From an uncultured Desulfobacula sp. (lineage in GTDB: Bacteria > Desulfobacterota > Desulfobacteria > Desulfobacterales > Desulfobacteraceae), in contig CAZLTD010000007.1 in the NCBI GenBank assembly GCA_964562385.1, forward strand, positions 8,799 to 72,798: a stretch of DNA of 64,000 nucleotides, written 5' to 3'. Position numbers and translations under genes: made by a program. Below the pieces are notes generated by a model. The model saw only the letters and a program-made list of their open reading frames with translations, searched no databases and was not told the DNA's origin. Below, one piece after another: positions 1 through 62,739 of the stretch (position 1 is its first letter; every line of letters begins with the position of its first letter).

Positions 1-849
1 CCGCCGCTGTCAAATATATATGCCGCCCATAAAGTTAATGGAACCCGCATGAATGTGGCTGTTGCGCTGGGAGTAGATCCGGCCATTCTCATCGGATCCG
101 TTCTAACCCCTCAGGAGGGTGTGGACAAACTGGCGTCTGCAGGGGGGATGGTCCGTTCGGCCATTGCCACGGTCAAGGCCCAGACAGCGGATGTAGAAGT
201 ACCGGCGTATGCGGAAATCGTCCTGGAAGGTTATATTGATCCCAAAGAAGATGAACAAGACAATATCTTGGGAGAGGTGAGCGGCATGTACGTCGGGTTC
301 TCAAGTCCGACAATTCATGTTACCACCGTGACCATGCGGCGCAATGCCGTTTACCATGGTCTGCTGCCCCATGGGGCTGAAGTTGATCAGCTGCTGGCAT
401 TCATTTTCGGGCTCAAAATCATACCCAGAATGAAACAGGATTTCCCTTCGATCGTCGACATCCATTTTACCCCTGAAACTTTTGGTTCCCACATTGTCAT
501 GTCCATGGACACCGATGACAAAGGAGATATCCGCCGGGCAATGACCGCCATGCTCACCTTCTCCAACGTTAAAAAGGCTGTTGTTGTCAACAAAGATGTG
601 GATATTCGAAATCCTCTGGAAGTTGAATGGGCCATGGCCACCCGATTTCAGGCGGACCGGGACCTTATTATTATTCCGGGATTAAAAGGACCGGCCATTG
701 ATCCGTCCGCAGGCCCCGGATTCATGACGACAAAACAGGGAATTGATGCCACATGCCCGGCGCAAAAGGGATTTGGAAGAATCCGGTTTCCCGAAGAAAT
801 TCAAAACCGATTGCCATATAGTATCAACGAATTAAATATACAGGAATAA
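1..849 (+). CDS. UbiD-family (prenyl-FMN dependent) decarboxylase/carboxylase, C-terminal part; the 5' end lies outside the window
   Basis: Frame 1 is open from nt 1 (PPLSNIYAAHKVNGTR precedes the listed Met at 49). UbiD-type blocks are present: VAVALGVDP, VPAYAEIVLEGYIDP, EWAMATRFQADRD. The stop lies 2 nt before the ubiX start. Confidence 0.9.
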   Translation, partial: PPLSNIYAAHKVNGTRMNVAVALGVDPAILIGSVLTPQEGVDKLASAGGMVRSAIATVKAQTADVEVPAYAEIVLEGYIDPKEDEQDNILGEVSGMYVGFSSPTIHVTTVTMRRNAVYHGLLPHGAEVDQLLAFIFGLKIIPRMKQDFPSIVDIHFTPETFGSHIVMSMDTDDKGDIRRAMTAMLTFSNVKKAVVVNKDVDIRNPLEVEWAMATRFQADRDLIIIPGLKGPAIDPSAGPGFMTTKQGIDATCPAQKGFGRIRFPEEIQNRLPYSINELNIQE

Positions 850-851
850 TC

Positions 852-1478
852 ATGAAAAGACTTGTCGTAGGAATGTCAGGCGCAACCGGGGCCATCTATG
901 GTATCCGGCTTCTTGAAGTACTCTCGGAATCGGATGTTGAAACCCATCTGGTGATTTCAAAGGCAGCTGAAAAAACCATTCGGATGGAAACACCCTGGTC
1001 TGTAGACAAGGTAAAGTCCCTGGCACATACCTGCTACGATCCCAGAAACATCGGTGCCAATATTGCCAGTGGCTCTTTTCTCAATGAAGGTATGGTGGTT
1101 ATCCCCTGTGCCATCAAGACGCTGTCCGGAATTGCACACTCATACAATGACAATCTGCTGACGCGTGCCGCCGATGTGACCATTAAAGAAAAGCGCAAAC
1201 TGGTCATTGTTGCCCGTGAAACGCCTTTCCATAAGGGGCATCTGAAGCTGATGATGGAAGCGGCTGATTTAGGGGCAACAATTTTACCTCCGGTACCGGC
1301 ATTTTACTGCATGCCGAAAACCATTGACGACCTTGTCAATCATCTTGTGGGAAAAGTTCTGGATATGTTCGGCATCGAAAACAATCTGTTTCACCGCTGG
1401 GGCAGCGAAGAGATCGAAAAAGCACTGGCCCAAAAAGAGATCCAGGAGGGTGTCCTTGAAAAACACCTGGTCAAATGA
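852..1478 (+). CDS. ubiX: Flavin prenyltransferase UbiX (prenyl-FMN synthase)
   Basis: N-terminus MKRLVVGMSGATGAIYGIRLLEVL is the typical UbiX/Pad1 flavoprotein fold signature. Length is 208 aa and the gene is tightly coupled to the upstream UbiD gene. Confidence 0.93.
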   Translation: MKRLVVGMSGATGAIYGIRLLEVLSESDVETHLVISKAAEKTIRMETPWSVDKVKSLAHTCYDPRNIGANIASGSFLNEGMVVIPCAIKTLSGIAHSYNDNLLTRAADVTIKEKRKLVIVARETPFHKGHLKLMMEAADLGATILPPVPAFYCMPKTIDDLVNHLVGKVLDMFGIENNLFHRWGSEEIEKALAQKEIQEGVLEKHLVK

Positions 1479-1563
1479 AGTAACACCCAAACCTGGTGTA
1501 GTCTGATTTTTAAAAAATTTTACCGTCTTCCGGTGCTGGAAGGCCGAATCTTAAGGGGACGTC

Positions 1564-2436
1564 ATGACGGATCGTATTGTTTCTATTGAGCAGGCTGTAG
1601 AAGATATTCGCAACGGAAAAATGGTAATTCTGGTGGATGACGAAGACCGGGAAAATGAAGGGGACCTGTGTTGCGCAGCCCAGCTGGTTACGCCTGAAAT
1701 CATCAACTTTATGGCAACCCATGCCCGCGGTCTGATCTGCGTCTCCCTTACCGGGGACAGACTTGATGCATTGGGGCTGAACCCCATGGTGCAGGACAAC
1801 CAGTCACAGTACGAAACCGCTTTTACCAAATCCATTGATGCTGCCAAAGGAATCACAACAGGCATCTCCGCACAGGATCGAGCCCATACTATTCTCACTG
1901 TTGTGGATAAAGATATGGGGGCGGGCGACTTAGTCTGTCCCGGGCATACATTTCCCTTGCGGGCACGCAGCGGCGGGGTGCTGACGCGTCCGGGGCAGAC
2001 CGAAGGCTCGGTTGACCTGTCAAGGCTGGCAGGATTGAAGCCTGCCGGTGTTATCTGCGAAATCATGAATGACGACGGCACCATGGCACGGATGCCTGAA
2101 TTGATTGAATTTGGCGAGAAATTCGGGATTAACATTGTTTCTGTAGCCGCCCTGATCCAGTACCGTCTGCTCAATGAAACCCTGATCCACCAGACAGGGA
2201 AAAAGAGGCATCTGCCAAGGGAGCAGGGAGAACTAACCGTGGTGACATATGAATCGAATCTGACACCCGAGGCCTCATATATTGCGATGATCAAAGGGGA
2301 AATATCACAAAATGATCAAGTGCTGGTGAGGATTCATAAAGAGTGCTTCCTGGGTGATTTTGTCAACTCCTCTCTATGTGACTGCAGCCGCAAACTGCGT
2401 GACTCAAAACAGATCATCACTGAGGCGGGAAAATGA
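1564..2436 (+). CDS. ribB: 3,4-dihydroxy-2-butanone-4-phosphate synthase (RibB domain) fused to the start of a degenerate GTP-cyclohydrolase-II-like domain (RibBX-like); ends at an in-frame TGA
   Basis: DHBP synthase motifs are present: [29 protein letters not shown]. The ORF then continues with [21 protein letters not shown], resembling the RibA zinc-site block. TGA at 2434-2436. Confidence 0.88.
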
Positions 2437-2700
2437 ATTCTTTTGTATATCCGCCGGAAAGACGGCCTGTTCGATTTTGAGCATCATGACGGCGGCTGTA
2501 CAGCCGATCAAACAGATGTTGATGCAACCCAAAACCAGAATGAGATCGTGAAACGGCAGGAACTTTTCCATTGCGGAATCTGTGCAAAAATTTTGCTGGA
2601 TCTGGGTGTAAAAAAGGTCCGCCCCATCATCGGCAGACCGGATCATGGAATTAATTTTGAAGCGTACGACCTGAGGCTGGCAGAACGTGTGACAATATGA
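2437..2700 (+). other. Continuation of the degenerate RibA-like domain, in the same frame as 1564-2436 and separated from it only by the TGA at 2434-2436
   Basis: Same frame as the ribB ORF. ILLYIRRKDG and GICAKILLDLGVKKVRPIIGRPDHGINFEAYDLRLAERVTI align by eye to RibA VLLYLRQEGRG and [32 protein letters not shown]. The stop overlaps the fni ATG (ATGA at 2697-2700). Confidence 0.55.
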
Positions 2701-3710
2701 CAGCAAAAGACAAAACCATTTCCAACCGTAAGGACGATCACATCTCCATCTGCCTTAACAGCGATGTGACCTTTAATAAAACAAATGGTTTTGAAAAATT
2801 TGATTTGATGCACCAGGCAATGCCGGAACTCAGCCTGGCCGATATTGATACTTCAACAACTTTCCTGGGAAAACATTTTTCCTATCCTTTTTTTATTGAA
2901 GCACTTACCGGCGGGACAAAAAGGGCGCAAAAAATAAACCAGAACCTGGCCCGGGCAGCCGCCCAGTTCGGCATTGGAATGGGAGTCGGTTCCCAACGGG
3001 CCATGCTGGTAAACAAGGATGCAATCCGATCCTATCAGGTCCGTGATGTGGCGCCTGATATCCTGCTGCTTGGGAACATCGGCGCCACCCAGCTTCCGGG
3101 TCTTAAAACCGAGACTGTTGTGGATATGGTCAATCAAATCGGGGCAGACGGTATGGCTGTTCACCTGAATGCCGCCCAGGAGCTGTGTCAGCCCGAAGGG
3201 GATACGGACTGGTCCGATATCCGTTCCCATATTGAACGTATCTGCACTGAACTTCCATTTCCGGTTATTGTCAAGGAAACCGGCTGCGGCATTGATGGAA
3301 AGACAGCCCGGCTGCTGGCTGCTGCCGGCGTTGCCTGCCTGGATATTGCCGGGGCAGGCGGCACCTCTTTTACCAAGGTCGAATCTTATCGGGGACTTGA
3401 AAGCTGTGAGACATTTGCCGAATGGGGAATCCCGACGGCAGAGTCCCTGAGGCAGTGCCGGAAATCAACCAATATCCCATTGATCGCCTCGGGCGGTCTT
3501 CGCACCGGTGTCGATTGCGCCAAGGCTATTGCCATGGGGGCGTCTCTTAACGGATTTGCCCTGCCCCTGCTGGCTGCTGCTCAACAATCTCACCGGGAGG
3601 TGATTTTGAAACTGACCGCATTGGGAGATGAGCTGAAAAAAGCCATGCTGCTTGTGGGAGCAGGCACTATCGATGAATTAAAGAGTGTGCAGGTCAATCC
3701 CAGCCAATGA
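2697..3710 (+). CDS. fni: Type 2 (FMN-dependent) isopentenyl-diphosphate delta-isomerase
   Basis: RKDDHISICL near the N-terminus, FIEALTGG, GVGSQR and VKETGCG blocks match the IDI-2 family pattern. Length 337 aa. Confidence 0.88.
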   Translation: MTAKDKTISNRKDDHISICLNSDVTFNKTNGFEKFDLMHQAMPELSLADIDTSTTFLGKHFSYPFFIEALTGGTKRAQKINQNLARAAAQFGIGMGVGSQRAMLVNKDAIRSYQVRDVAPDILLLGNIGATQLPGLKTETVVDMVNQIGADGMAVHLNAAQELCQPEGDTDWSDIRSHIERICTELPFPVIVKETGCGIDGKTARLLAAAGVACLDIAGAGGTSFTKVESYRGLESCETFAEWGIPTAESLRQCRKSTNIPLIASGGLRTGVDCAKAIAMGASLNGFALPLLAAAQQSHREVILKLTALGDELKKAMLLVGAGTIDELKSVQVNPSQ

Positions 3711-3791
3711 GGGTTGCTTCACTTGCATCAGGGGCAACCGAGCGGATCTAAATTATAAGTTTAGTTTATGATTTCCATAAGTTAAATGATT

Positions 3792-3821
3792 TTGACAACC
3801 TAAGCTGCAAAAGAGTAAAAA
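3792..3821 (+). promoter_or_regulatory. Candidate sigma70-type promoter for the carboxylase genes
   Basis: TTGACA at 3792-3797 and TAAAAA at 3816-3821 (18-nt spacer), about 60 nt upstream of the strong SD (AGAGGAGGA) of the 3880 gene. Confidence 0.3.
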
Positions 3822-3879
3822 ATTCAGAAGATAGCGTTAAAAAGTTAATTTTTCATACATAAGACAGAGGAGGAAATTC

Positions 3880-5295
3880 ATGGATCTTAGGGACTTCATC
3901 GCCATGTGCGAGAAAGAAAATGACCTGAAACGGATAACCGCCGAAGTGGATTGGGATCTGGAAATGAGCCATATTTCCAAACTGGTTGAAGAGAAAGACG
4001 GCCGGGCTGTGTTGTTTGAAAATGTCAAAGGCCATAATGGTTCCGTTCTTTTTGGCGCCTACAGCAGCACCAAGCGGCTGGCCATGACTCTTGGCAAGCC
4101 AGCGCATTTGAGCATGGCCCAGTTGAGCCATGAATGGATGAAGATGTCCATCGGTGATGTAATCCGATCCAAAGAGGTCAAAGACGGACCGGTTTTCGAA
4201 AACATTATTGAAGAAGAAAATGTCAATGTTTTCAACCTGCCCTCGCCCAAATTTTATGACAAGGATGGCGGACGGTTCATCGGAACTGCCTGTTTTATGG
4301 TGGTAAAAGATATTGAAACCAATGAGATAAACCTGGGTACCTACAGAAGCCAGGTGCTGGATGAGAAAACCGTAGGGGCACAGATCTTAAAGGGCAAACG
4401 CGGTGACCGTATTCTGCAGAAATGGCGTAAAGCGGGCAAGAAAATGCCGATCTGTCTGGTGGTTGGCTGCGACCCTTTATTGATGCTGGCCGGAAGTGCC
4501 ATGGTGGAAAATGCCAGTGAATATGATGTGGTGGGAACGCTGCGTGGTGAGCCGGTGGAAATTGTAGAAGCACCGCTGACCGGCCTGCCGATCCCGGCCA
4601 CCGCCGAAATCGTTCTGGAAGGGTATATTGACGGGGATAACCTTCGACCTGAAGGACCCTTTGGCGAATATACAGGCTTTTACACGGATGAGCTCAATAA
4701 CATCGTGAAAAAGCCGGCCATTGATGTAAAACGTATTTATCATCGTAACGATCCCATCATGCTGGCCGCTTCTGTGGGCCGACCGGTGAATGACAACCAT
4801 ATGATGCTGGCATTTGTCCGTAATGCAACACTCTGGACCGAACTGACACGCATGGGAATGAAAGGTATCCAATCGGTTTATATGCCTCCTGAAGCCTGCG
4901 GCCGCTTCTGGGCCATCATCTCGGTCAAGCAGATGTATCCCGGACACTCAAACCAGATTGCAGCGGCTGTGATCGCCAGCCACACCTGCACATACGGTCT
5001 TAAGGGGTTGATCATTGTGGATGATGATATTGCAGCAGACGACCTGCCACGGGTATGGTGGGCTCTGGCCACCCGTTACGATCCTGCGCGGGGTACCCAG
5101 ATTATCAATCGCGGCCGGTCAACACCCCTGGATCCGGCCTTGAGCCATGATGAGAACAAATTTATCACCTCCCGCATCATCATGGACGCCACCTTTCCGT
5201 TCGAATGGGAAGAAAAACCGGTACAGGTCGATATGAACCAGGACGTTCTTGACCGCATAAAAGAGCGTTGGGGAGAGCTCGGGTTGGATGATTGA
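3880..5295 (+). CDS. UbiD-family carboxylase large subunit (phenylphosphate-carboxylase alpha/beta-like)
   Basis: 471 aa. UbiD blocks: DGGRFIGT..NLGTYRSQ, AEIVLEGYIDGD, GPFGEYTGFY, WWALATRYDP. Strong SD GAGGAGGA 6 nt upstream. Confidence 0.88.
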   Translation: MDLRDFIAMCEKENDLKRITAEVDWDLEMSHISKLVEEKDGRAVLFENVKGHNGSVLFGAYSSTKRLAMTLGKPAHLSMAQLSHEWMKMSIGDVIRSKEVKDGPVFENIIEEENVNVFNLPSPKFYDKDGGRFIGTACFMVVKDIETNEINLGTYRSQVLDEKTVGAQILKGKRGDRILQKWRKAGKKMPICLVVGCDPLLMLAGSAMVENASEYDVVGTLRGEPVEIVEAPLTGLPIPATAEIVLEGYIDGDNLRPEGPFGEYTGFYTDELNNIVKKPAIDVKRIYHRNDPIMLAASVGRPVNDNHMMLAFVRNATLWTELTRMGMKGIQSVYMPPEACGRFWAIISVKQMYPGHSNQIAAAVIASHTCTYGLKGLIIVDDDIAADDLPRVWWALATRYDPARGTQIINRGRSTPLDPALSHDENKFITSRIIMDATFPFEWEEKPVQVDMNQDVLDRIKERWGELGLDD

Positions 5296-5416
5296 TCTGG
5301 TGTGAAAAAATTGAGAGCCACATATCTTAAGTAACTGCGCCGTTAGCGGCAGCGCAGCGGTACAACCCCCATAATGATGACCATTATGGAGGTTAGAGGA
5401 GAGAAGGAGAAAAAAT

Positions 5417-5707
5417 ATGATTGTTAATCGAAGAACATTTATTGTCAAAAAAGGTTGTTCCGAAAAAGTGGTGGAACTGCTTAAGGATGCCACAAAAGGT
5501 GCCAGCGTTCCTAAAGTGGTAAGAATTTATCAATGGTCAATCAGCCCCAGCGACCAGGTGACCTGGGAGGCGGAATTTGAAGACATAGAGGAATATTCCA
5601 AATTCTCTACAGAATGGGTCGGCGATCCAAAACGGGCTGACCTGCTTGAAAAATTCAATGATCTTACGGTTCCTGGCGGCACCAGTGAAATTTTACGCCT
5701 GGCCTGA
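5417..5707 (+). CDS. Small (96 aa) protein between the two UbiD paralogs; possible accessory subunit, function unknown
   Basis: SD-rich leader (GGAGAGAAGGAGA). The composition is protein-like, with alternating beta/alpha pattern reminiscent of small alpha+beta barrel proteins. No family was recognised with certainty. Confidence 0.6.
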   Translation: MIVNRRTFIVKKGCSEKVVELLKDATKGASVPKVVRIYQWSISPSDQVTWEAEFEDIEEYSKFSTEWVGDPKRADLLEKFNDLTVPGGTSEILRLA

Positions 5708-5862
5708 TTGAACCGGACTTAAGAAAAGACAAGATCAAGTGGGAAGAGGCTATCACAAAGATAATAAAAACGGTTTGGATTGGTTCATAGGAAATGCGGA
5801 CTCATCTGAAACCGGATAATTTAAAAGTCGAATAAACCATTTTTTATAAAAAGGAGTGTTCA

Positions 5863-7302
5863 ATGGCGTACAACTGCCCAAAAGACAATCGTGAGTATAT
5901 CAAGAGGCTGGAAGAAAGCGGCGACCTTCGCATCATAGAGCAGGAGGTTGATTGGGATTTGGAAATGGGTGCGATCACCAGAAAGGTTTGCGAGGAGCAA
6001 GCACCTTCTCCCTATTTCAAAAACATCAAGGATTACCCGGGCTTTGAAAGCCTTGGGGCACCCATGGCCACCTGGCGACGTCTGGCCATTGCCATGGGAA
6101 TGGAAGCCGACGCTGCTGTCCCGGACATTTGTAGCGAGTATGTCAAACGGAACCAGGGTGAACCCATTGACCCTGTGGTTGTGGAAAAAAGTGCTGCTGC
6201 CTGTAAAGACAACATTCTTCTGGGTGATGATGCCAATCTGTTTCATCTGCCGGGACCTATGGTGCACGACGGCGACGGCGGCCGGTATCTGGCAACCTGG
6301 CATTTTGTCGTAAGCAAGGATATGGATACTGAGGAGATCAACTGGGGCATGTACCGGATGATGGTGTTTGACGAAAAGACCATGGTCGGACCAGTGTTGC
6401 CGTTCTCTGATATGGGTAAGATGTTTCACGGCAAATACGCACCCCAAAACAAGCCCATGCCATTTGCTGCCGTACTTTCTGCTGATCCGATGTCGAGTCT
6501 GGCATCATGTGCACCAACACAACTGCCGGAAGACCAGTTTGCCGGCATGCTCAAGGGAGAACCAGTGGAGGTTGTGCAGTGCGAGACCTGTGATCTGATG
6601 GTTCCGGCCAATGCAGAAATTATCATTGAAGGTGAGGTTATTCCTGGTATTGAAATTGAAGAAGCACCGTTTGGTGAGTATACCGGCTATCGAACATCCC
6701 CCAGGGAACCGAGAACCGTATACCGAATTAAGGCCATCACCTATCGGAATAATCCCGTCCTGATGATATCCAACATGGGTATGCCTGTGGATGAGGGGCA
6801 GTTGCTGCGCTCTTTCTCTTTAGCGCTTGAAATGCACAAGCTGCTGGAAAGCCAGGGTATTCCCATCACCGGTGTTTACATGCTGCCGGAGTCAACCCAT
6901 CACATAGTGGTTGTCGGTGTAAAAACAGCCTACACTGGAATTGCACAGCAGATTGCCAACCTGATTTACGGAAGCAAGCTGGCTCCATGGTTCCATATGA
7001 CCATTGTGGTGGATGAGGACACGGACATTTACAGTAAAGATGAGGTGATCCATGCGCTGGCTACCAAGTGTCATCCCATCCGCGACATCCACAAATATGA
7101 AAATGCACCGGGTACGCCTTTAAATCCGTATGCGTCGCCAGAGGAACGGAAAACAAGCACAGGTGCCAAGGTTCTTTTTGATTGCACCTTCCCGTTAGAT
7201 TGGCCAAAATCTGATCTGCCGATCAGGGTCTCTTTTGACAATGTATATCCTCAGGAAATTCAAGACAAGGTAAATGAAAACTGGAAAAAGTTCGGATACT
7301 AA
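5863..7302 (+). CDS. UbiD-family carboxylase large subunit (second paralog, phenylphosphate-carboxylase alpha/beta-like)
   Basis: 479 aa. Blocks: DGGRYLATWHFVVSKD..NWGMYRMM, AEIIIEGEV, APFGEYTGYRT, IHALATKCHP. SD AAAGGAG upstream. Confidence 0.88.
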   Translation: MAYNCPKDNREYIKRLEESGDLRIIEQEVDWDLEMGAITRKVCEEQAPSPYFKNIKDYPGFESLGAPMATWRRLAIAMGMEADAAVPDICSEYVKRNQGEPIDPVVVEKSAAACKDNILLGDDANLFHLPGPMVHDGDGGRYLATWHFVVSKDMDTEEINWGMYRMMVFDEKTMVGPVLPFSDMGKMFHGKYAPQNKPMPFAAVLSADPMSSLASCAPTQLPEDQFAGMLKGEPVEVVQCETCDLMVPANAEIIIEGEVIPGIEIEEAPFGEYTGYRTSPREPRTVYRIKAITYRNNPVLMISNMGMPVDEGQLLRSFSLALEMHKLLESQGIPITGVYMLPESTHHIVVVGVKTAYTGIAQQIANLIYGSKLAPWFHMTIVVDEDTDIYSKDEVIHALATKCHPIRDIHKYENAPGTPLNPYASPEERKTSTGAKVLFDCTFPLDWPKSDLPIRVSFDNVYPQEIQDKVNENWKKFGY

Positions 7303-7376
7303 ACCCATTGGGTGATCTATTGATTTAAGAATGTTTTGAAACCCATTATAAATGATTAATTACGGAGGTAATCCTG

Positions 7377-7637
7377 ATGCCACAAAAAGAATACGACACC
7401 TATATTCTTACAGATATTAACGCGGTACCAGATGATCAGAAGAACATTGAGTTGATCATCCGTGATTTGAATCCTCAAGACCCGCGATTCAAATACAACA
7501 GCTGTTTTGCCAAGGCAAATGTTTCCAAAGACAAATCCCGTTACCCGGACGCCCTGTGGGTCCGTCTTGGAAGGGGTCAGCTGCAGGATGAACCATGGTC
7601 CATTGAAGTTTTGGAAAAAGTGGACAAGTTCGCATAA
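7377..7637 (+). CDS. Small (86 aa, about 10 kDa) protein following the second UbiD paralog; candidate gamma-like subunit
   Basis: SD ACGGAGGT 7 nt upstream. Size and position match the 10-kDa subunit of Thauera phenylphosphate carboxylase. The sequence identity was not verifiable by eye. Confidence 0.6.
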   Translation: MPQKEYDTYILTDINAVPDDQKNIELIIRDLNPQDPRFKYNSCFAKANVSKDKSRYPDALWVRLGRGQLQDEPWSIEVLEKVDKFA

Positions 7638-7666
7638 TCGCATCTATTACAATCAAACACGGCCTG

Positions 7667-7700
7667 CCCGGGGGGATCTTTTTGCTCCCCCGGGTTTTGC
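7667..7700 (+). terminator. Rho-independent terminator-like hairpin after the 86-aa gene
   Basis: CCCGGGGGA (7667-7675) pairs with TCCCCCGGG (7686-7694) around a 10-nt loop, followed by TTTT. Confidence 0.6.
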
Positions 7701-7720
7701 TGATTCTTTTTTAAACCCGG

Positions 7721-7765
7721 TTAATATGGATCAGATTAATATGGACCCAATTAATATCGACCAGG
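7721..7765 (+). repeat. Three tandem 15-nt units: TTAATATGGATCAGA / TTAATATGGACCCAA / TTAATATCGACCAGG
   Basis: Read directly from the sequence. The units lie between the terminator and the SD-supported start at 7783, and would encode NMDQI-NMDPI-NIDQ if the gene started at 7726. Confidence 0.85.
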
Positions 7766-7782
7766 AGCAATGGAGAAACATT

Positions 7783-8292
7783 ATGGAGCAGGCAAAAAAC
7801 ATAAAGTTGTTGATACTTGATGTTGACGGGGTAATGAGTGATGGCGGTATTTATATGGATGAGAACGGACTGCAGCACCGCCGTTTTGATATCAAAGATG
7901 GGTTGGGGACCGTTGTTCTGCCGATGATGGGCGTCGAAGTTGCCATCATTACCTCAAAGAAGTCGGGTGCTGTTCGATTTCGTGCAAAAGAGCTGAGAAT
8001 CAAACGTTTCTACGAAGGTATCAAAAAGAAGACCGAGGCTTTTGAAGAGATTAAGGCCGACATGGGTATTGAAGACCACGAGGTCTGCTATATGGGGGAC
8101 GATCTTGTTGATCTAAGCATGATGAAGCGCGTGGGTCTGCCTGTATCTGTTGCCGATGGGGTGGCCGAAGTGAAAGAGGCGGCAGCCTATATCACTCAGG
8201 CAAAGGGCGGCTATGGCGCCGTTCGAGAGGTAGCTGAGATGATCCTGAAGGCCCAGGGTAAATGGGAGAAGATCCTGGAAAAAGTGGGTTGA
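7783..8292 (+). CDS. KdsC-type HAD phosphatase (phenylphosphate-carboxylase delta-like, about 18 kDa)
   Basis: HAD motif I LILDVDGVMSDG, then ITSKKS and a MGDDLVDL motif. GGAGA lies 6 nt upstream of the ATG at 7783. Alternative in-frame ATGs at 7726 and 7741 lack an SD. The 7507 extension overlaps the previous gene and the terminator. Confidence 0.78.
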   Translation: MEQAKNIKLLILDVDGVMSDGGIYMDENGLQHRRFDIKDGLGTVVLPMMGVEVAIITSKKSGAVRFRAKELRIKRFYEGIKKKTEAFEEIKADMGIEDHEVCYMGDDLVDLSMMKRVGLPVSVADGVAEVKEAAAYITQAKGGYGAVREVAEMILKAQGKWEKILEKVG

Positions 8293-8371
8293 TAGGAAGC
8301 GTTATCTGTATCTAAAAAAAAGAGGGGCTTGTTTGTGAAAGGAAATATGTGCCCGGATTCCGGCCCAAAAG

Positions 8372-9043
8372 TTACCTGAACAATTTCAATGGAAATAAGA
8401 TGTTCGCCTCCGGGATACTGGCGTGCGGGCTTTTTGTGATTACATAATTTTCGCAACTTCCGACCGGATTGAAACGCTCTTTTTTTAGATAAAAAAATCC
8501 TTTAAGTGACCTGGCTGCGGATGCTGCAAATTTAAAAACAGCCATTTTCTGCACTGGTTGCTCTCCTTTTCTTTCACTGATCCGGAGCTTGCCCTGGGTT
8601 TTTGATGCTTCAGGCCGGGAGAGGCAAACGATATCTCCGTCCGTAAGATTAAGCTTTTGTTTCAAACTGCAGGATGCGATCACCTCAAGAATCCGGTCTT
8701 CATGGATACGTACCTCTTTACCGGGAATCACCACTGCAGCCGGAGTATCGTTCAACATTATTCTTTTAACACCGGCTGAACAAAAAGTGGGATCGTCCGG
8801 TATCAATTCAAAATCCGAAGGTTCAAGAAGACGGCTCAAACGGGCAAGGTCCCGGTCATTGATTCTCACATTCAAGGTTCCGGGAAACGGTTTATACCCC
8901 AGATTCTTCCTGCATTGCTCTACAACCCAGTCGATCTGGGTAAAAAAGGCGCCTTTGCCTGCGCCACTAAGAACGGTGCCTGAGATTTCCATTTCGTTTT
9001 TACCTTCTTCAAAAAAAAAATTATTTTCACCGACCGCCATCAA
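8372..9043 (-). CDS. Archaeal-type (CTP-dependent family) riboflavin kinase domain protein with an unusual C-terminal tail of about 80 aa
   Basis: GTVLSGAGKGAFF..LGYKPFPGTLNV...AAVVIPGKEVRIHEDRILEVIA...LNLTDGDIV matches the archaeal riboflavin kinase (MJ0056-type) pattern. The start overlaps the upstream HAD stop (ATGA). Confidence 0.78.
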   Translation of the reverse strand: MMAVGENNFFFEEGKNEMEISGTVLSGAGKGAFFTQIDWVVEQCRKNLGYKPFPGTLNVRINDRDLARLSRLLEPSDFELIPDDPTFCSAGVKRIMLNDTPAAVVIPGKEVRIHEDRILEVIASCSLKQKLNLTDGDIVCLSRPEASKTQGKLRISERKGEQPVQKMAVFKFAASAARSLKGFFYLKKERFNPVGSCENYVITKSPHASIPEANILFPLKLFR

Positions 9044-9753
9044 ATAAAATTGCTGACCACAAGCTGTGTAAGGTCTGCCACGCTGTCAAGGATCATGGTC
9101 GGGTTTTCCTTTTCAAGCGTTTCCCGGTCGTGAAGTCCGGTCAATACCCCGATGGTCATCATACCGGCTTTGCGGCCTGCCTGAATGTCAACATGACAGT
9201 CCCCGATAAAGATACAGCGGGACGGCTGCACCGAAAGTTTCCGGGCACATGCAAGCAGTGGATCAGGCGCCGGTTTCTTTTTTGGGGCATCTTCTGTTGC
9301 TATCACTGACGCCAGCGATGCTTTCAGGCCTTTGCGGGCCAGGGGTGTCAACTTTAAATCCATATAGGCCCGATGTGTGGAACTGACAACGCCAATGGGT
9401 ATCTTTCTTAAGGTGATCTCTGAAAACAATTGTTCCACCCCCGGTATCAATTCAACTTCCTTCTGAAAGGTGCTCCGCAGCTTTTGGCGTCCCAAAGAGA
9501 GAAACTTTTTGATCAGCTCTTCTTTTTGGTCATGCATTTCCTGAGGAATCATGTTTTCAAAGGCCGGCAGCCCCTGGATCATAAAATCAGCAATCCGGGA
9601 TCTGGGCGCCGGCGGCAGACCGAGGGTCTCCATCATCCATGCCATCACTCGAAAATATGAGGGTATGGAGTCGATCAGCGTGCCATCCAGGTCAAACATG
9701 ACGGCCTGGACCGTCCATTTTTTCTCCTTAAAGGGAATAATCGTCTCCATCAT
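9040..9753 (-). CDS. HAD-IA family phosphatase (phosphoglycolate-phosphatase-like)
   Basis: Motif I MFDLDGTLIDS, motif II VVSST, and a KKKPAPD..FIGDCHVDIQAG motif III/IV. Confidence 0.85.
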   Translation of the reverse strand: MMETIIPFKEKKWTVQAVMFDLDGTLIDSIPSYFRVMAWMMETLGLPPAPRSRIADFMIQGLPAFENMIPQEMHDQKEELIKKFLSLGRQKLRSTFQKEVELIPGVEQLFSEITLRKIPIGVVSSTHRAYMDLKLTPLARKGLKASLASVIATEDAPKKKPAPDPLLACARKLSVQPSRCIFIGDCHVDIQAGRKAGMMTIGVLTGLHDRETLEKENPTMILDSVADLTQLVVSNFI

Positions 9754-9897
9754 TTAGTTCAGTGGAACATGGTAACTGATATCAGCCTCACCCGAATATT
9801 TCACGAACGTGTAACCTCTTGAAGCTTAAACAAGTGTCTGATCCTTGTATCACTAAGTATTCGGGTATCATGAAATATCCGGGCCGCAAGGCCTTAA

Positions 9898-11226
9898 TTA
9901 ATGCTTTCTCAAATCCTTAAACCGTTTAGCCTTAACATCATATCGGGGCAGGCGGCCGTAATCGTAAAACTCGATGCGGTAACCCAGGTTTGTTTTTAAC
10001 CGGAGACTATCCTTGAGCTGGTCTTCGACGGCTTTGGCGCGATCTTCCTGGCCGGGAATCAGCTCAACCTTTAATTTAATTCGGTCCACATCGCCAAGCT
10101 TGTCCACAATGACTTCGTATTCATCACCCAGACCATCAATACTCCTGACCACCTCTTCGATGGCTGATGGTGCCAGCAGAACGCCTTTGACCTTTGTAAT
10201 GTCATCGGCCCGTCCGACAACCCCGCCCTTGATCAAACGGAATGTCCGCCCGCAGGAGCAGGTAGCGCTGTCCCATTCAATGATATCCTTGGCATCAAAC
10301 CTGACGCAGGGCTGGGCAAACCGGTCCAGGGCGGTGATGATCATTTTGCCTCGACGCCCGGGCTCTTCTATAATTTCACCGGTATCCACGTCTTCAATTT
10401 CCACCAGGAAAAATGCATCATTGACATGCATCCCACCGGGCTGCGCCTGGCATTCAAAAGACCACGCCCCGATTTCCGTTGCACCGGCGTGATCATAAAC
10501 TTTTGCGTTCCACGCATTCTGCATCCGTTTTTTAGTACTGGGTATGCTGGCTCCGGGCTCTCCGGCACAGGTAATTTTTTGGATACCCAGGGCGGACGGG
10601 TCAATGTCCATTTTCTGTTTTGCCGTATCTGCCATACCCAGTACATAGGTGGGAGTGGCCATCATGGCCGTGGCATTCAACTCCTGGATTTTTAATATCC
10701 TGGCCTGGGTATCGAGCACACCTCCGGGCACCACTTCACACCCGACCTTTTCGGCCGCGTAATGACCGGCCCAGAATGCAACAAAGATATTATACCCGAA
10801 CGGGATGAATACCCGGTCGGAGGGTCGGTACCCCTGGGCCCACAGTATATATGCCCAGCACTCGGACCACCATTCCCAGTCCTGCCACGTATCGGCCTGA
10901 TATACCGGCTGCCCGGTGGTTCCGCTGGTCTGGCGGAATGCGGTGACGTCATCCAAAGGGACGCACAGGGCATCACCGTAAGGAAACGGATCCTTGCGCT
11001 GGATGTCACGCATCATGGATTTTTCTACTTTGGGTACCTTTTGAACGTCGGCCATCGTGCGAATATCCCCGGGAGCTATCCCTGCCTGGTCATAGAGCTT
11101 GCGATGAAATTTAGAATTATCATAGGCCCATTTAAAAATTCTTTTAAATTTATGGAGTTGCAGGTTCCTCAATGCTTCACGGTCCATTGTCTCTAATACA
11201 GGATTCCAAAAAGGTGTATTGTCCAT
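9898..11226 (-). CDS. Phenylacetate-CoA-ligase (PaaK)/coenzyme F390 synthetase family adenylate-forming ligase; candidate aryl-carboxylate-CoA ligase
   Basis: 442 aa. FRQTSGTTGQP AMP motif, YDHAGATE, GRADDITKVKG; PaaK-type length and organisation. Confidence 0.85.
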   Translation of the reverse strand: MDNTPFWNPVLETMDREALRNLQLHKFKRIFKWAYDNSKFHRKLYDQAGIAPGDIRTMADVQKVPKVEKSMMRDIQRKDPFPYGDALCVPLDDVTAFRQTSGTTGQPVYQADTWQDWEWWSECWAYILWAQGYRPSDRVFIPFGYNIFVAFWAGHYAAEKVGCEVVPGGVLDTQARILKIQELNATAMMATPTYVLGMADTAKQKMDIDPSALGIQKITCAGEPGASIPSTKKRMQNAWNAKVYDHAGATEIGAWSFECQAQPGGMHVNDAFFLVEIEDVDTGEIIEEPGRRGKMIITALDRFAQPCVRFDAKDIIEWDSATCSCGRTFRLIKGGVVGRADDITKVKGVLLAPSAIEEVVRSIDGLGDEYEVIVDKLGDVDRIKLKVELIPGQEDRAKAVEDQLKDSLRLKTNLGYRIEFYDYGRLPRYDVKAKRFKDLRKH

Positions 11227-11252
11227 TTTTATATCCCCACTATAACTTTTCG

Positions 11253-11435
11253 TTATGCGTTTTTGCCATACTCTTCAGGTTCGGTAAAATTGAGTTCCAG
11301 CATCTTGATAGCAGCCTTTATCCGCTGCAGATTGCTTTTCAGTGCCGGGAGTTCATTGCTGTATTCCTCAAGGCAAAGCGCTGATTCATTCAGCTTTTTA
11401 ATTTCGCGGCATATCTCTTCAATGGCTATATTCAT
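11253..11435 (-). CDS. Small (60 aa) helical protein upstream of the CoA ligase
   Basis: ATG at 11435 is preceded by GGGAGGTAAA (perfect SD, 4-nt spacer). The longer 120-aa track ORF has no SD and runs into a repeat element. Predicted sequence MNIAIEEICREIKKLNESALCLEEYSNELPALKSNLQRIKAAIKMLELNFTEPEEYGKNA. Confidence 0.5.
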   Translation of the reverse strand: MNIAIEEICREIKKLNESALCLEEYSNELPALKSNLQRIKAAIKMLELNFTEPEEYGKNA

Positions 11436-11551
11436 TTTACCTCCCATGAAAAATGCATATATCAATGGCCGGTCTGCCATTGGCATGATGCTTTTTTTGT
11501 TAGCGTTAAAAAGATGACATCTTTCATCCCGTGTGGCACTCGTGACAATGT

Positions 11552-12863: not shown

Positions 12864-15800
12864 ATGAAACGTTTATCATTTCTTAAGACTGTCCTTGTCA
12901 TTTTTTTGGTGCTTTTCATCAGCACACCGGCATTTTGCGGGAAACCCATCCTCACTATTGATACCGGCGGCCACAAATCAATTGTCAAAGAGCTTATTTT
13001 CACCAAAGACAACCGTTACCTGATATCCACCGGGTACGATAAGACCATCCGGGTGTGGAATGTCCAGACAGGGCAGATCGACCGTATTATCAGGGGGCAG
13101 ATCGGCGACGGCCATGAGGGCAAACTCTATGCTGCGACATTATCACCGGACAACAGGTGGCTTGCAGTGGCCGGGTTTACAAAGGACAATGATATCCGGC
13201 TCATTGATTTTGGGACCGGGGAAATCGAAAAACTCTTTCTAAAACATAACGATGTGATCCGGGATCTGGCCTTTTCCAGGGACGGCCGCTATATCGTATC
13301 ATCCAGTTTTGACAAGACAGCAAAAATCTGGAACGTGAGTTCCGGAAAGGCCCACACGGTTTTAAAAGGTCACACCAAAAGCGTGAATACCGCTGTTTTC
13401 TCCCCGGACGGCCGTACCATTGTCACCGGCAGTGATGACAAAACCCTGAAGCTGTGGGATGCGCGAACAGGCAGGCTGCTGTCCACCCTGTCAGGTCACA
13501 CAGACCGAATCCGCTGCGTGGAGTATACGCCCAACGGAAGATACATTCTTTCAGGATCCAATGACAAAACCATACGGCTGTGGGACGGCAGAACAGGGAG
13601 TGCGATCAAGGTTCTGGTCACCCAGAACCGTGCGCCCATAAAATTTTCCATCTCCCCGGACAGTACCAAGGTGGTCACGGGCCACTCCAGCGGGTCCGGA
13701 TCCAGGACCAACAATATTTTTTCCATTCCTTCGGGAACTAAAGTGTCATCCATCACCAAACACACCAATATTGTCATTGCCACAGCCATCTCGCCGGATG
13801 GCAGACTGGCCGCCACCGGCGGTGGTGATAATCGCGAAATTTATATCTGGGAGGTTGCCACGGGCAAAATAAAACACAAACTGGCCGGCAGCGGCGGTTC
13901 CGTCTGGGCTGTCGGGTTTGGCAAAGACAGCGGATCATTTGCATGGGGAACTGTTTTCAATAAAAGCAGCCTGACAAAACGCGGCGATGTCCAGCACTCC
14001 ATCTCCTTTAAACACGGCCGGGAATTCCAATTGTCCTATAATGCCCAGGAAAAAAATAAGAACAATTATGTTTACGGTACCACCTCTGTGGGATCCCGCT
14101 CCATAAAAACGCTGAACGGCCATATCCATAAAACCCTGCAGATTCTGAACAATGGCCAGGTCCAGCATAAAATCACGCGAGATTCCACCAATGGGTTTAC
14201 CCACCGCAGCCTGACCATGACACGGGACGGCCGCATTATTATCAGCGGCGGCGGCAGCGGGCAGATCACTTCCTATAATGCAAGTACAGGCCAGCAGATC
14301 CATCAGTTTGTCGGCCACCTTGGGGATGTATGGGGGGTTGCCTGTTCCCCGGACAGCCGCTTTCTTGTTTCAGGATCGGCAGACCAGACTGTTCGGCTCT
14401 GGGAAATCGATACCGGCAAACTGCTGCTGTCTGTTTTCAGAGGCACGGACAATCAGTGGGTGGCCTGGACACCGGAAGGGTATTATTCCGCATCCATCAA
14501 GGGGGATGATTATATCGGCTGGCACATCAACCAGGGATATGACAAGTCCGCCCTGTACTATCCGGCATCCCGTTTTGCCCATAAGTTTTATTCCCCGGAT
14601 ATCGTTGCCCAGTATATCGCCACCGGCGGCAACCTTGAGCGGTCCATCGAACTTGTCAACCAGTCCAAACCCAAGCAGAAGCAGATCAGCCAGACCAACA
14701 TCAATGATATCCAAAACATCCTGCCCCCGCTGGTTTTCATCCAGACACCGGTCAACCGGGACGTTATTGTCCGGGAAAACAAAGTCAGGATCAAGGCTTA
14801 TGCAAAGTCGGTGACCAAGGATCCGGTCTCCGACATCTGGGTATTGCTGAACGGCCGGAAGCTTGACACCCGTGCCATCAAGGTGGCGCCCAGGAAAAAG
14901 ACAGGCAGCCTGTCGGCTGAACTGGATATCGTGGTGCCTTTAACGGAAAAAAGCAACTCGATTTCAGTGGTTGCCTCTAACAAACACGGGCGATCAGAAC
15001 CGGAAAGCATCAATGTTACCTGGCAACCGAAAAAGACAGCGCCTGCCATAAAAAAACAATACAAACCCGATCTCTATCTTCTGTGTATCGGGGTATCCAA
15101 ATACAAAAACCCGGCCTACAACCTTGATTTTGCCGACAAGGATGCCATGGGGGTCGAAAAGATCTTTAGTACCCAGCACGGCGGCCTGTACAATAACGTG
15201 TATGCCAAAACCCTGACCAATGAAAGGGCCACCAAGATGAAAATCCAGGAATCCCTGGAGTGGCTCTACCAGGAGTCTACCCAGAAGGATCTGTCCGTCA
15301 TTTTTATCGCCGGCCACGGCATTAAAGATACCCGGAACAACTATTATTTCATGCCCTATGACGGCCATCCGGATAAATTAATGTTCTCTGCCGTCAAATG
15401 GTTTGATTTCCAGGACATCATCTCCAGTTTGCCCTCAAAAGTTATTTTAATGGCAGACACCTGCCACAGCGGCGCCTTAACCGGTAAACGCAGGGGCTTG
15501 TCCGATATTACCCAGGCGTTGCGGGACCTGATCTCTGCGGACAGCGGGGTGGTGGTCATGACGGCGTCCACCGGAAAAGAGTTGAGCGTGGAACATCCGG
15601 ACTGGGGTCATGGCGCCTTTACAAAGGCCCTGATTGAAGGGTTGAATGGGGATGCAGATTATGACAGCGACAACATCATTGACATGAAAGAGATTGACCT
15701 TTTCATTACCAAGCGCGTCAAGGAGCTTACCGGCGGCAGTCAGCATCCGACCACGGAAATTCCCAAGACAATGCCCAATTTTCCGCTGGTGGTAAAATAG
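12864..15800 (+). CDS. Secreted multi-domain protein: signal peptide, WD40 repeats (two propeller-sized blocks), beta-sandwich-like spacer, and C-terminal caspase-like (peptidase C14) domain
   Basis: N-terminus MKRLSFLKTVLVIFLVLFISTPAFCG. There are many WD repeats (DKTIRVWN, DKTAKIWN, DKTLKLWD, DKTIRLWD, DQTVRLWE). C-terminal block LLCIGVSKY...FIAGHG...LMADTCHSG carries the caspase His/Cys dyad context. Confidence 0.85.
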   Translation: MKRLSFLKTVLVIFLVLFISTPAFCGKPILTIDTGGHKSIVKELIFTKDNRYLISTGYDKTIRVWNVQTGQIDRIIRGQIGDGHEGKLYAATLSPDNRWLAVAGFTKDNDIRLIDFGTGEIEKLFLKHNDVIRDLAFSRDGRYIVSSSFDKTAKIWNVSSGKAHTVLKGHTKSVNTAVFSPDGRTIVTGSDDKTLKLWDARTGRLLSTLSGHTDRIRCVEYTPNGRYILSGSNDKTIRLWDGRTGSAIKVLVTQNRAPIKFSISPDSTKVVTGHSSGSGSRTNNIFSIPSGTKVSSITKHTNIVIATAISPDGRLAATGGGDNREIYIWEVATGKIKHKLAGSGGSVWAVGFGKDSGSFAWGTVFNKSSLTKRGDVQHSISFKHGREFQLSYNAQEKNKNNYVYGTTSVGSRSIKTLNGHIHKTLQILNNGQVQHKITRDSTNGFTHRSLTMTRDGRIIISGGGSGQITSYNASTGQQIHQFVGHLGDVWGVACSPDSRFLVSGSADQTVRLWEIDTGKLLLSVFRGTDNQWVAWTPEGYYSASIKGDDYIGWHINQGYDKSALYYPASRFAHKFYSPDIVAQYIATGGNLERSIELVNQSKPKQKQISQTNINDIQNILPPLVFIQTPVNRDVIVRENKVRIKAYAKSVTKDPVSDIWVLLNGRKLDTRAIKVAPRKKTGSLSAELDIVVPLTEKSNSISVVASNKHGRSEPESINVTWQPKKTAPAIKKQYKPDLYLLCIGVSKYKNPAYNLDFADKDAMGVEKIFSTQHGGLYNNVYAKTLTNERATKMKIQESLEWLYQESTQKDLSVIFIAGHGIKDTRNNYYFMPYDGHPDKLMFSAVKWFDFQDIISSLPSKVILMADTCHSGALTGKRRGLSDITQALRDLISADSGVVVMTASTGKELSVEHPDWGHGAFTKALIEGLNGDADYDSDNIIDMKEIDLFITKRVKELTGGSQHPTTEIPKTMPNFPLVVK

Positions 15801-58678: not shown

Positions 58679-58707
58679 TTGACACCGTGTGTTGTTGGGT
58701 TTATTCT
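58679..58707 (+). promoter_or_regulatory. Candidate promoter of the B12-riboswitch operon
   Basis: TTGACA at 58679-58684, a 17-nt spacer, then TATTCT at 58702-58707. Confidence 0.4.
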
Positions 58708-58714
58708 CCAGAAT

Positions 58715-58875
58715 GTTTCAGGTGCTGCTTTGTGCAGATAATAGGGAATCCTGTGGAAATCAGGAACGGACCCGCCGCTGTAACCGGTTATGAATGCTGT
58801 AATTGCCACTGGTAAAACGGGAAGGCTCAGCAAGTAAGTTGATCCGGTAAGTCAGAAAACCTGCCTGGAAATTGA
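58715..58875 (+). ncRNA. Cobalamin (B12) riboswitch
   Basis: Conserved core AATAGGGAATCCTGTGGAAATCAGGAACGGACCCGCCGCTGTAACCGG, B12 box GCCACTGG, GGGAAGGC, and GTCAGAAAACCTGCC. Lies upstream of the cbiK/btu-like genes. Confidence 0.9.
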
Positions 58876-59014
58876 TCGTGTTGCTTGCGAGGACTTTGGC
58901 AGATCAAACAAATGAGGAAAAAAACGGTTCCCACATCAAAAAAGTTTTGGTGTGGGTTTTTTTGTTTGCCTGTCCCGCGTTATTTTTTATTGTTTAAATA
59001 ACAAAGGAGTTATG

Positions 59015-59971: not shown

Positions 59972-59985
59972 GACATGAGGAGATC

Positions 59986-61032: not shown

Positions 61033-61036
61033 AGCG

Positions 61037-62726: not shown

Positions 62727-62739
62727 TAAGGATACACCC

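Follow-up and report, generated by a model that had tools for sequence, protein, structure and literature searches.

A phenylphosphate carboxylase operon with a conserved, predicted NIPSNAP-like gene in an uncultured Desulfobacterales bacterium

A 64,000-nucleotide stretch of DNA from an uncultured Desulfobacula sp. (GenBank assembly GCA_964562385.1, contig CAZLTD010000007.1, positions 8,799 to 72,798; hereafter the window) was analysed around a group of five open reading frames (ORFs), two of which encode paralogs of the UbiD family. Profile matches solidly identify this locus as an operon for phenylphosphate carboxylase (Ppc) and not for an ordinary UbiD or VdcC decarboxylase. Between the genes for the two large subunits lies a further gene, orf96, with a product predicted to resemble NIPSNAP proteins. 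Judging from its distribution, we read orf96 as a lineage-specific accessory of Ppc and not as a proven fifth subunit, as it is absent from some ppc clusters. A structural Ppc operon with a facultative accessory orf96, accompanied by a module that would supply prenylated flavin mononucleotide (prFMN), is our preferred explanation of the whole locus, and we give it a probability of about 70%.

Ppc catalyses the key step of anaerobic phenol degradation at which a C-C bond is formed, and its fixation of CO2 makes it attractive for biotechnology. Its cofactor status is unsettled. The Ppc system itself is known; the extra conserved NIPSNAP-like gene in the operon is the new element, and the literature searched contained no description of such a gene from ppc operons, or of NIPSNAP linked to UbiD. 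The locus suggests that Ppc complexes of the sulfate-reducer type are not composed as in the Thauera model. Both orf96 and the flavin and prenyl supply set are concrete candidates for the difficult heterologous reconstitution of such enzymes, and the operon provides a testable context for a large unannotated NIPSNAP-like family.

Results and discussion

Identity of the carboxylase subunits

The subunit region consists of five adjacent ORFs on one strand, within positions 3880-8292 (Table 1). An earlier interpretation made from the DNA letters only (the sequence-only reading) had described the layout as a UbiD paralog, a 96-amino acid protein, a second UbiD paralog, an 86-amino acid protein and a HAD phosphatase of about 18 kDa, and all five ORFs were recovered in this arrangement. 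A Shine-Dalgarno motif could be read 6-8 nucleotides 5' of each of them, including the two different ORFs of about 10 kDa, one after each UbiD paralog, for which motifs of their own had been claimed.

The identity of the products was judged by NCBIfam (TIGRFAM) equivalog trusted cut-offs and Pfam gathering scores. PpcB matched the beta subunit model TIGR02724 over its full length with 643.1 bits (cut-off 468.95), and PpcA matched the alpha subunit model TIGR02723 with 664.1 bits (cut-off 564.6), whereas the VdcC, UbiD and MqnL-type models stayed far under their own cut-offs on both proteins. The proposal of a Ppc-type module is therefore upheld by the two large subunits. The Pfam domains UbiD_N, UbiD and UbiD_C were matched in both. 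The hallmarks of the UbiD family, derived from Fdc1 and UbiD, are the metal/cofactor motif N-x-G-x-Y-R and the acid pair in E-G-P-F-G-E; they are kept as NLGTYR and EGPFGE in PpcB and as NWGMYR and EAPFGE in PpcA.

For the 86-amino acid protein, PpcC, the Pfam family PF09662 (Phenyl_P_gamma) was matched with 52.3 bits at a gathering score of 25, and its homologues carry the NCBI name 'phenylphosphate carboxylase subunit gamma'. The predicted model of PpcC is all-beta and had no Foldseek neighbour in the PDB with an E-value below 1. Sequence searches of the PDB found no Ppc subunit among the solved structures and nothing significant for PpcC. The top profile of the phosphatase, PpcD, was the delta model TIGR02726, and its score against the KdsC equivalog was 184 bits (cut-off 208). 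Two scores weigh against a complete assignment: PpcC reached 47.5 bits on TIGR02725, under the stricter cut-off of 135.55, and the 264.8 bits of PpcD on TIGR02726 are under the cut-off of 281.95. The profile comparison suggested earlier thus places beta and alpha above their equivalog cut-offs, gamma by its Pfam family and delta by its best match.

The phosphatase ORF has possible ATG codons at 7726, giving 188 amino acids, and at 7783, giving 169, and a further upstream start at 7741. Position 7783 is most likely the start of ppcD, because the TIGR02726 alignment begins at residue 20 of the 188-amino acid form, the 96% identical homologue in L015 (the prefix L numbers the related metagenomic loci) has its start at the position corresponding to 7783, and this ATG is preceded by a GGAGA motif at a distance of 6 nucleotides.

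The classical enzyme has four subunits: a phosphatase, delta, and three that are responsible for the exchange of CO2, namely alpha, beta and gamma (PMC6114531, PMC7500099). In Thauera aromatica K172 it is encoded by ppcABCD (Schuhle and Fuchs 2004, as summarised in PMC6114531 and PMC7500099) and its subunits have masses of 53, 54, 10 and 18 kDa (PMC6114531), with which the calculated masses in Table 1 agree. The likeness extends to the two UbiD-type subunits of 53-54 kDa, the 10-kDa gamma and the 18-kDa KdsC-type HAD protein that is the probable delta, to the adjacency of the ppc genes, and to the presence of UbiX, a further UbiD-like gene and an aryl-CoA ligase nearby, so the fit to the Thauera enzyme that had been noticed is borne out. 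Unlike in T. aromatica K172, the window has a 96-amino acid NIPSNAP-like gene between ppcB and ppcA, sets ppcD off by a hairpin, lacks adjacent ppsABC genes and carries a much larger flavin and prenyl set (RibB, a type 2 isopentenyl-diphosphate isomerase (IDI-2), a CTP-type riboflavin kinase and HAD phosphatases). The 96-amino acid protein comes in addition to all four classical subunits and, as already stated in the sequence-only reading, has no counterpart in that enzyme.

Table 1. Features of the ppc locus and its surroundings in the window
Feature	Positions	Strand	Size or evidence
Third UbiD-like paralog, 3' part	49-849	+	Pfam UbiD, UbiD_C; partial TIGR00148 match
UbiX flavin prenyltransferase (makes prFMN)	852-1478	+	NF004685 263 bits (cut-off 188); TIGR00421 250 (109)
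ribB (3,4-dihydroxy-2-butanone 4-phosphate (DHBP) synthase) fused to divergent GTP cyclohydrolase II domain	1564-2700	+	TIGR00506 245 bits (cut-off 177)
Type 2 isopentenyl-diphosphate isomerase (supplies dimethylallyl diphosphate)	2697-3710	+	TIGR02151 396 bits (cut-off 281)
ppcB, Ppc beta subunit	3880-5295	+	471 amino acids, 52.8 kDa
orf96, divergent NIPSNAP/ABM-like dimeric alpha+beta-barrel protein, predicted	5417-5707	+	96 amino acids, 10.9 kDa
ppcA, Ppc alpha subunit	5863-7302	+	479 amino acids, 53.7 kDa
ppcC, Ppc gamma subunit	7377-7637	+	86 amino acids, 10.1 kDa
GC-rich hairpin and interrupted U-tract, candidate leaky terminator or stabilising stem	7666-7712	+	between ppcC and ppcD
15-nucleotide tandem repeat, 2.9 copies	7721-7763	+	Tandem Repeats Finder
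ppcD, KdsC-type HAD phosphatase, delta subunit (best match)	7783-8292	+	169 amino acids, 18.7 kDa
Archaeal-type CTP-dependent riboflavin kinase-like (FMN supply)	8372-9043	-	PF01982 94 bits; ribK_Meth 70.5 (cut-off 168)
HAD-IA phosphatase, beside riboflavin kinase	9040-9753	-	Pfam HAD_2 108 bits
PaaK-type aryl-CoA ligase, candidate 4-hydroxybenzoate-CoA ligase	9898-11226	-	AMP-binding, AMP-binding_C_2; PaaK models 230 bits, below cut-offs

Family and predicted fold of orf96

No Pfam or NCBIfam model matched orf96. Its homologues form 41 clusters of 90-102 amino acids with 44-99% identity, plus one truncated fragment of 62 amino acids. The ratio of nonsynonymous to synonymous substitution rates (dN/dS) against the relatives was 0.05-0.19, and the unsaturated comparison with L015 gave 0.165. 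By these comparisons orf96 is a real gene under purifying selection.

The AlphaFold2 model of the monomer (predicted local distance difference test score 90.8, from a 23-sequence alignment) has a ferredoxin-like fold with the order beta-alpha-beta-beta-alpha-alpha-beta. The top Foldseek matches were the bacterial NIPSNAP-domain structures 5k9f, 5ixu and 2ap6, with query-normalised template modelling scores of 0.71-0.78 and E-values of 1e-5 to 3e-5; proteins of the ABM family rank after them, and IsdG, LsrG and polyketide cyclases are among the neighbours. A sequence search of the PDB with orf96 returned nothing significant. The Pfam NIPSNAP family (PF07978) was not matched by orf96 itself and was matched in only 2 of 23 close homologues (best E-value 1.9e-5); two remote family members, P0046 and P0047, pass its threshold of 22.3 with scores of 33.8 and 30.3.

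When 1.84 billion representatives were searched with a profile, 571 family members were found at an E-value of 1e-3 or below, including tandem forms of about 200 amino acids, and those with a name are all annotated as 'hypothetical protein'. The near-invariant residues R5, G13, R36, E51, E53 and E91 of the family are kept in orf96, while position 93, which is Trp in 126 of 150 family representatives, is Leu. The predicted fold agrees with those of bacterial NIPSNAP proteins (5k9f, 5ixu, 2ap6, 1vqy) and ABM proteins; unlike these NIPSNAP proteins, orf96 has a motif set of its own, made up of the N-terminal MIVNRR together with R36, E51, E53 and E91. None of the structural neighbours is known to be linked to UbiD enzymes.

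The idea that each UbiD paralog has one small partner, with orf96 as a paralog of PpcC, was considered and the paralogy rejected. The hhalign probability was 0.1%, and an alpha+beta barrel is predicted for orf96 against an all-beta fold for PpcC. A small partner for each UbiD paralog thus stays a hypothesis. The spacer between ppcB and orf96 (5293-5416) contains two small hairpins (z-score -2.1), the second of which reaches almost to the Shine-Dalgarno motif of orf96, and the spacer between orf96 and ppcA has no significant structure (z-score -0.4).

Gene order in related clusters

Among ppc clusters of uncultured Desulfobacterales, orf96 was found after ppcB in about ten distinct variants, directly after it in most. 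The small gene is therefore conserved and syntenic, as the sequence-only reading would require. The exact order of the window, ppcB-orf96-ppcA-ppcC-ppcD, was found again in L015. Most relatives have the order ppcB-orf96-HAD185-HAD177-ppcA-ppcC, often with ppsA, ppsB, a CoA ligase, UbiD and UbiX on the 5' side. These pps-ppc clusters thus have two divergent KdsC-like HAD proteins between orf96 and ppcA, whereas the window and L015 have a single delta gene after ppcC. HAD185 and HAD177 are only 37-40% identical to PpcD of the window and score 104 and 129 bits on TIGR02726, which indicates that the window lineage carries a different, more classical delta gene in another position, behind the hairpin.

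Insertions between ppcB and orf96 occur in four relatives. A PpsB-like gene (39% identical to PpsB of L004) is present there in L010, L023, L024 and L027, together with a 215-amino acid gene of no known family in L010 and L023. The inserted stretches lie at 5874-7679 in L010, 1354-3137 in L023, 2702-3652 in L024 and 2954-3958 in L027, and L027 additionally carries a divergent PpsA-like gene downstream of ppcC (7578-9419). The 215-amino acid protein was tried as a member of the orf96 family and rejected (hhalign probability 0.2%).

The position of orf96 invites the explanation that it is a stoichiometric fifth subunit, a small partner of PpcB as PpcC may be of the core, so that the enzyme of this lineage would have an alpha-beta-gamma-delta-epsilon composition. 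We consider this unlikely, although several observations speak for it. The gene lies inside the operon between both large-subunit genes with its own strong Shine-Dalgarno motif, and it comes after ppcB in every ppc-linked locus. In a neighbour-joining tree, calculated without support values, the ppc-linked copies form one clade, which has a clade-specific change of Trp93 to Leu. The gamma subunit of Thauera needed co-expression with beta, which is a precedent for small partners of this subunit (PMC7500099). However, neither tblastn nor a six-frame profile search found orf96 within 10 kb of ppc in L056, L057 and L058, although PpcB and PpcA of L056 are 83% and 85% identical to those of the window; PpcB of L057 and L058 is 65% identical. 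The gene also evolves faster than the core, with 65-72% identity across most related loci compared to 92-94% for PpcB, and it has no similarity to PpcC. The distance between ppcB and orf96 is not conserved among relatives (30-282 nucleotides), which argues against translational coupling. Finally, close relatives of orf96 occur without any ppc gene nearby: a sister clade with 71-74% identity is found beside genes for a CBS-domain protein, DksA, a pyridoxal phosphate (PLP)-dependent decarboxylase and transporters, in housekeeping surroundings. The absences, the variable spacing and the sister clade also weigh against a functional tie of orf96 to Ppc in general. The earlier description of orf96 as an extra small subunit is not supported in that form, given the close clusters that lack it and the family members outside ppc.

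The same distribution could be explained if orf96 was a hitchhiker, i.e. a generic NIPSNAP-like protein with a role independent of Ppc that became fixed in this operon lineage. In that case the locus would be a well-preserved example of a known pathway. The breadth of the unannotated family with its tandem two-domain forms would agree with this, as would the neighbours of the nearest relatives outside ppc described above, the transporter and NAD synthase genes that adjoin more distant ones, and the dispensability of orf96 in L056, L057 and L058. On the other hand, the position after ppcB is kept in at least 10 cluster variants despite moved HAD genes, pps-like insertions and differing flanks, the ppc-linked copies are monophyletic and the purifying selection on orf96 is strong. 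A hitchhiking gene is thus doubtful, to about the same degree as a fifth subunit. The synteny makes it probable that orf96 is functionally tied to Ppc, and we prefer to see it as a facultative accessory. On this preferred explanation, one Desulfobacterales lineage would have recruited orf96 into its ppc operon just downstream of ppcB, where the product could assist the carboxylase from the PpcB side, by binding a ligand or aiding assembly, and not as an obligatory fifth catalytic subunit.

In the sister clade, the CBS-linked copies form a clade of their own in the tree. In L012, L026, L028, L030 and L031 the orf96 sister gene is always followed by a gene for a CBS-pair protein of 155-163 amino acids, away from genes of aromatic degradation. 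The window itself encodes a Usp-CBS protein at 44785-46299, and its C-terminal CBS pair is 54% identical to that of the sister clade.

In L056, a contig of 7.66 Mb, no HAD-type delta gene was found within 10 kb of the ppc cluster. A gene of the histidine phosphatase family, alpha-ribazole-phosphatase-like (152 bits), lies after ppcC at 10619-11293. A non-orthologous replacement of the phosphatase subunit may have occurred in this cluster.

Variable composition of Ppc-type enzymes is also known from strict anaerobes. Geobacter metallireducens and Desulfatiglans anilini are without gamma, and the aniline enzyme of D. anilini consists of two beta-like subunits alone (PMC7500099). Like the window, these systems have Ppc-type UbiD subunits, and their subunit composition deviates from that of Thauera (PMC6114531, PMC7500099). 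They have no gamma and scattered genes, whereas the window has all four classical subunits and one extra gene. As to the suggestion that the subunit composition may differ from the described enzyme, a variable composition of Ppc was already in the literature (PMC6114531, PMC7500099). The benzene degrader BzS1 was weighed as a possible source of the DNA and rejected, as ppc is missing from its genome (PMC13416013).

Hairpin and tandem repeat between ppcC and ppcD

A GC-rich terminator hairpin and a triple tandem repeat had been proposed to separate the phosphatase gene from the rest. The hairpin was found, with a stem of 10 pairs (7666-7675 with 7686-7695; 8 G-C and 2 G-U) and a free energy of -25.2 kcal/mol (z-score -3.68; none of 200 shuffled sequences folded equally well). 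It is followed by UUUU, 8 nucleotides and UUUUUU and occurs once in the window. L015, the nearest relative, conserves it with one G-U pair changed to A-U. A simple consensus terminator scan did not report it, because its loop has 10 nucleotides. The interruption of the U-tract weighs against a terminator. The hairpin is a candidate for a partial or leaky terminator or a stabiliser of the messenger RNA, so of the earlier claim its existence stands and its terminator function is plausible. In the preferred explanation it would set the expression of ppcD lower than, or separate from, that of the core.

The repeat is also present, as 2.9 copies of a 15-nucleotide unit. With a single copy in L015, the expansion is strain-specific and the repeat has no role that is conserved. 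Both this 15-mer and the hairpin were considered as dispersed repeats and rejected, as they are local.

The flavin and prenyl supply set

The genes for the third UbiD-like paralog, UbiX, the ribB-type protein, IDI-2, the riboflavin kinase-like protein and the HAD-IA phosphatase occupy the window at 49-3710 and 8372-9753, on either side of the subunit genes. The riboflavin kinase-like gene is syntenic in related clusters, and homologues of the HAD-IA phosphatase with 59-61% identity have the same position in L001, L004 and L007. The CoA ligase of the window is 82-84% identical to the ligase within pps-ppc clusters. The same accessory genes surround ppc in L001-L011, L017, L021 and L056-L058, and the window shares UbiD, UbiX, CoA ligase, RibK, HAD phosphatase and orf96 after ppcB with the pps-ppc clusters L001-L011, L017, L025 and L027. 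By their predicted functions these accessory genes look like a module for prFMN supply, and no description of such a set around ppc was found in the literature searched.

The locus would then work as follows. In the host, an uncultured sulfate-reducer-like member of the Desulfobacterales with the order ppcB, orf96, ppcA, ppcC, hairpin and ppcD, PpcD would remove the phosphoryl group of phenylphosphate, by analogy with the T. aromatica enzyme. Phenolate would be carboxylated with CO2 in the para position by the PpcA/PpcB/PpcC core to yield 4-hydroxybenzoate, which the PaaK-type ligase could activate to its CoA ester. FMN would be provided by the riboflavin kinase and dimethylallyl phosphate by IDI-2 and a phosphatase, with prenylation by UbiX, and the module would raise both pools for prFMN formation. 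From this supply we infer that the carboxylase may be prFMN-dependent. Two points weigh against such a dependence. To our knowledge, the use of prFMN has been demonstrated for no Ppc. Moreover, FMN was reported to be sufficient for the related carboxylase of D. anilini (PMC7500099).

Another role for orf96 could be that of a cofactor helper, which would bind reduced FMN or prFMN, or aid its maturation and delivery to PpcA and PpcB under anoxic conditions. Barrels of the ABM/NIPSNAP type typically bind planar aromatic ligands, and the structural neighbours IsdG, LsrG and polyketide cyclases, the retained Arg and Glu residues and a neighbourhood rich in flavin and prFMN supply genes are all in line with such binding. 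Small helpers of UbiD enzymes are diverse, with VdcD being an integral small subunit and LpdD a chaperone for reduced prFMN (prFMNH2), and the work on LpdD predicts diverse, still unidentified prFMN chaperones (PMC10865409). Like both, orf96 is small, has its gene next to that of a UbiD-family enzyme and stands apart from the UbiX/UbiD pair (PMC10865409), and in this role it would be analogous in function to LpdD. There is, however, no relationship to LpdD or VdcD in sequence or fold, orf96 being predicted as a ferredoxin-like alpha+beta barrel. LpdD forms a dimer of the Pba3/4-like beta-sandwich type, in which conserved His-His-Asp residues make up a metal site (PMC10865409), and no LpdD entry was among the 50 best PDB matches of the orf96 model. 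Furthermore, orf96 is placed among the structural genes and not beside ubiX, and most contexts of the wider family, which numbers 571 representative clusters, contain neither UbiD nor UbiX. We regard a cofactor helper as slightly less probable than either a fifth subunit or a hitchhiker. The broader proposal that orf96 founds a new class of UbiD helpers, in which a NIPSNAP-fold protein would bind reduced flavin, prFMN or the phenolate intermediate and be required for anoxic activation or assembly of the Ppc core, is similarly speculative. If true, bacterial NIPSNAP-like proteins would thereby gain a first biochemical function, and a UbiD helper of this kind would bear on how prFMN matures without oxygen in strict anaerobes.

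The third UbiD-like gene, of which the window has the 3' part, is complete in L059, a locus 100% identical to window positions 1-11478 that extends 8,862 nucleotides further upstream. There it spans 8353-9711 and encodes 452 amino acids; its counterpart in L004 lies at 6397-7743. Two residues of the family motifs, the conserved Asn and the first Glu, are replaced in it (GRGLHR, NILGEVSG), and this paralog is perhaps no prFMN decarboxylase of the canonical type.

An in-frame TGA at 2434-2436, also present in L059, splits the ribBA-like gene into parts of 290 and 85 amino acids. The site reads GK*ILLY in the window and GKGILLY or GKGVLLY in L010 and L021. Selenocysteine was considered for this codon and rejected, as it replaces a Gly present in both relatives. 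In all three, the window, L010 and L021, the GTP cyclohydrolase II part has diverged.

Phenylphosphate synthase and the substrate

A point against phenylphosphate as the substrate is the absence of its synthase. With PpsA and PpsB of L004 as queries, tblastn found neither gene in the window, in agreement with the sequence-only reading, nor in the 8,862 nucleotides upstream of it in L059, where a search had been suggested. Most related clusters (L001-L011, L017, L025 and L027) include ppsA and ppsB. As pps genes are lacking from 8.9 kb upstream through the end of the window, the substrate given above is inferred.

Ppc of the window might therefore act on phenylphosphoamidate formed from aniline, on another phosphorylated phenolic compound, or as a reversible 4-hydroxybenzoate decarboxylase. 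Besides the missing pps genes, this would be consistent with the carboxylation of phenylphosphoamidate by Ppc-beta-like proteins of D. anilini (PMC7500099) and with the finding of a second, pps-containing type of ppc cluster (type 2; L004, L006) in the same Joint Genome Institute (JGI) metagenome samples, 3300009008 and 3300009128, as the window type without pps (L059, L061). We nevertheless regard another substrate as improbable. Alpha and beta exceed equivalog cut-offs that were built for phenylphosphate carboxylase, and at 92-94% and 86-89% identity PpcB and PpcA are very close to the copies in most clusters that carry ppsAB. In contrast to the aniline enzyme (PMC7500099), gamma and a probable delta phosphatase are encoded here, and D. 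anilini likewise has its pps and ppc genes scattered (PMC6114531). Phenylphosphate accordingly stays in our preferred explanation of the operon.

Other genes of the region and the window

Upstream of the window, L059 carries genes for a CoA-transferase, a short-chain dehydrogenase/reductase, a thiolase, a sigma-54 activator, a DUF4202 protein and a LysR regulator in addition to the UbiD-like gene. Directly downstream of the ppc island, a 978-amino acid protein with many WD40 repeats is encoded at 12864-15800, followed by an acetolactate-synthase-like thiamine pyrophosphate enzyme at 15808-17460. The sampled remainder of the window contains genes for EamA and tripartite ATP-independent periplasmic (TRAP) transporters, a NiFe hydrogenase, GlnE, CarAB and the WD40 protein, with no aromatic catabolism among them. 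A tRNA search found none, and an Rfam scan reported no riboswitch near the operon. The only match of that scan was a cobalamin riboswitch at 58703-58882 (RF00174, 108.9 bits), upstream of ORFs at 58952-63444.

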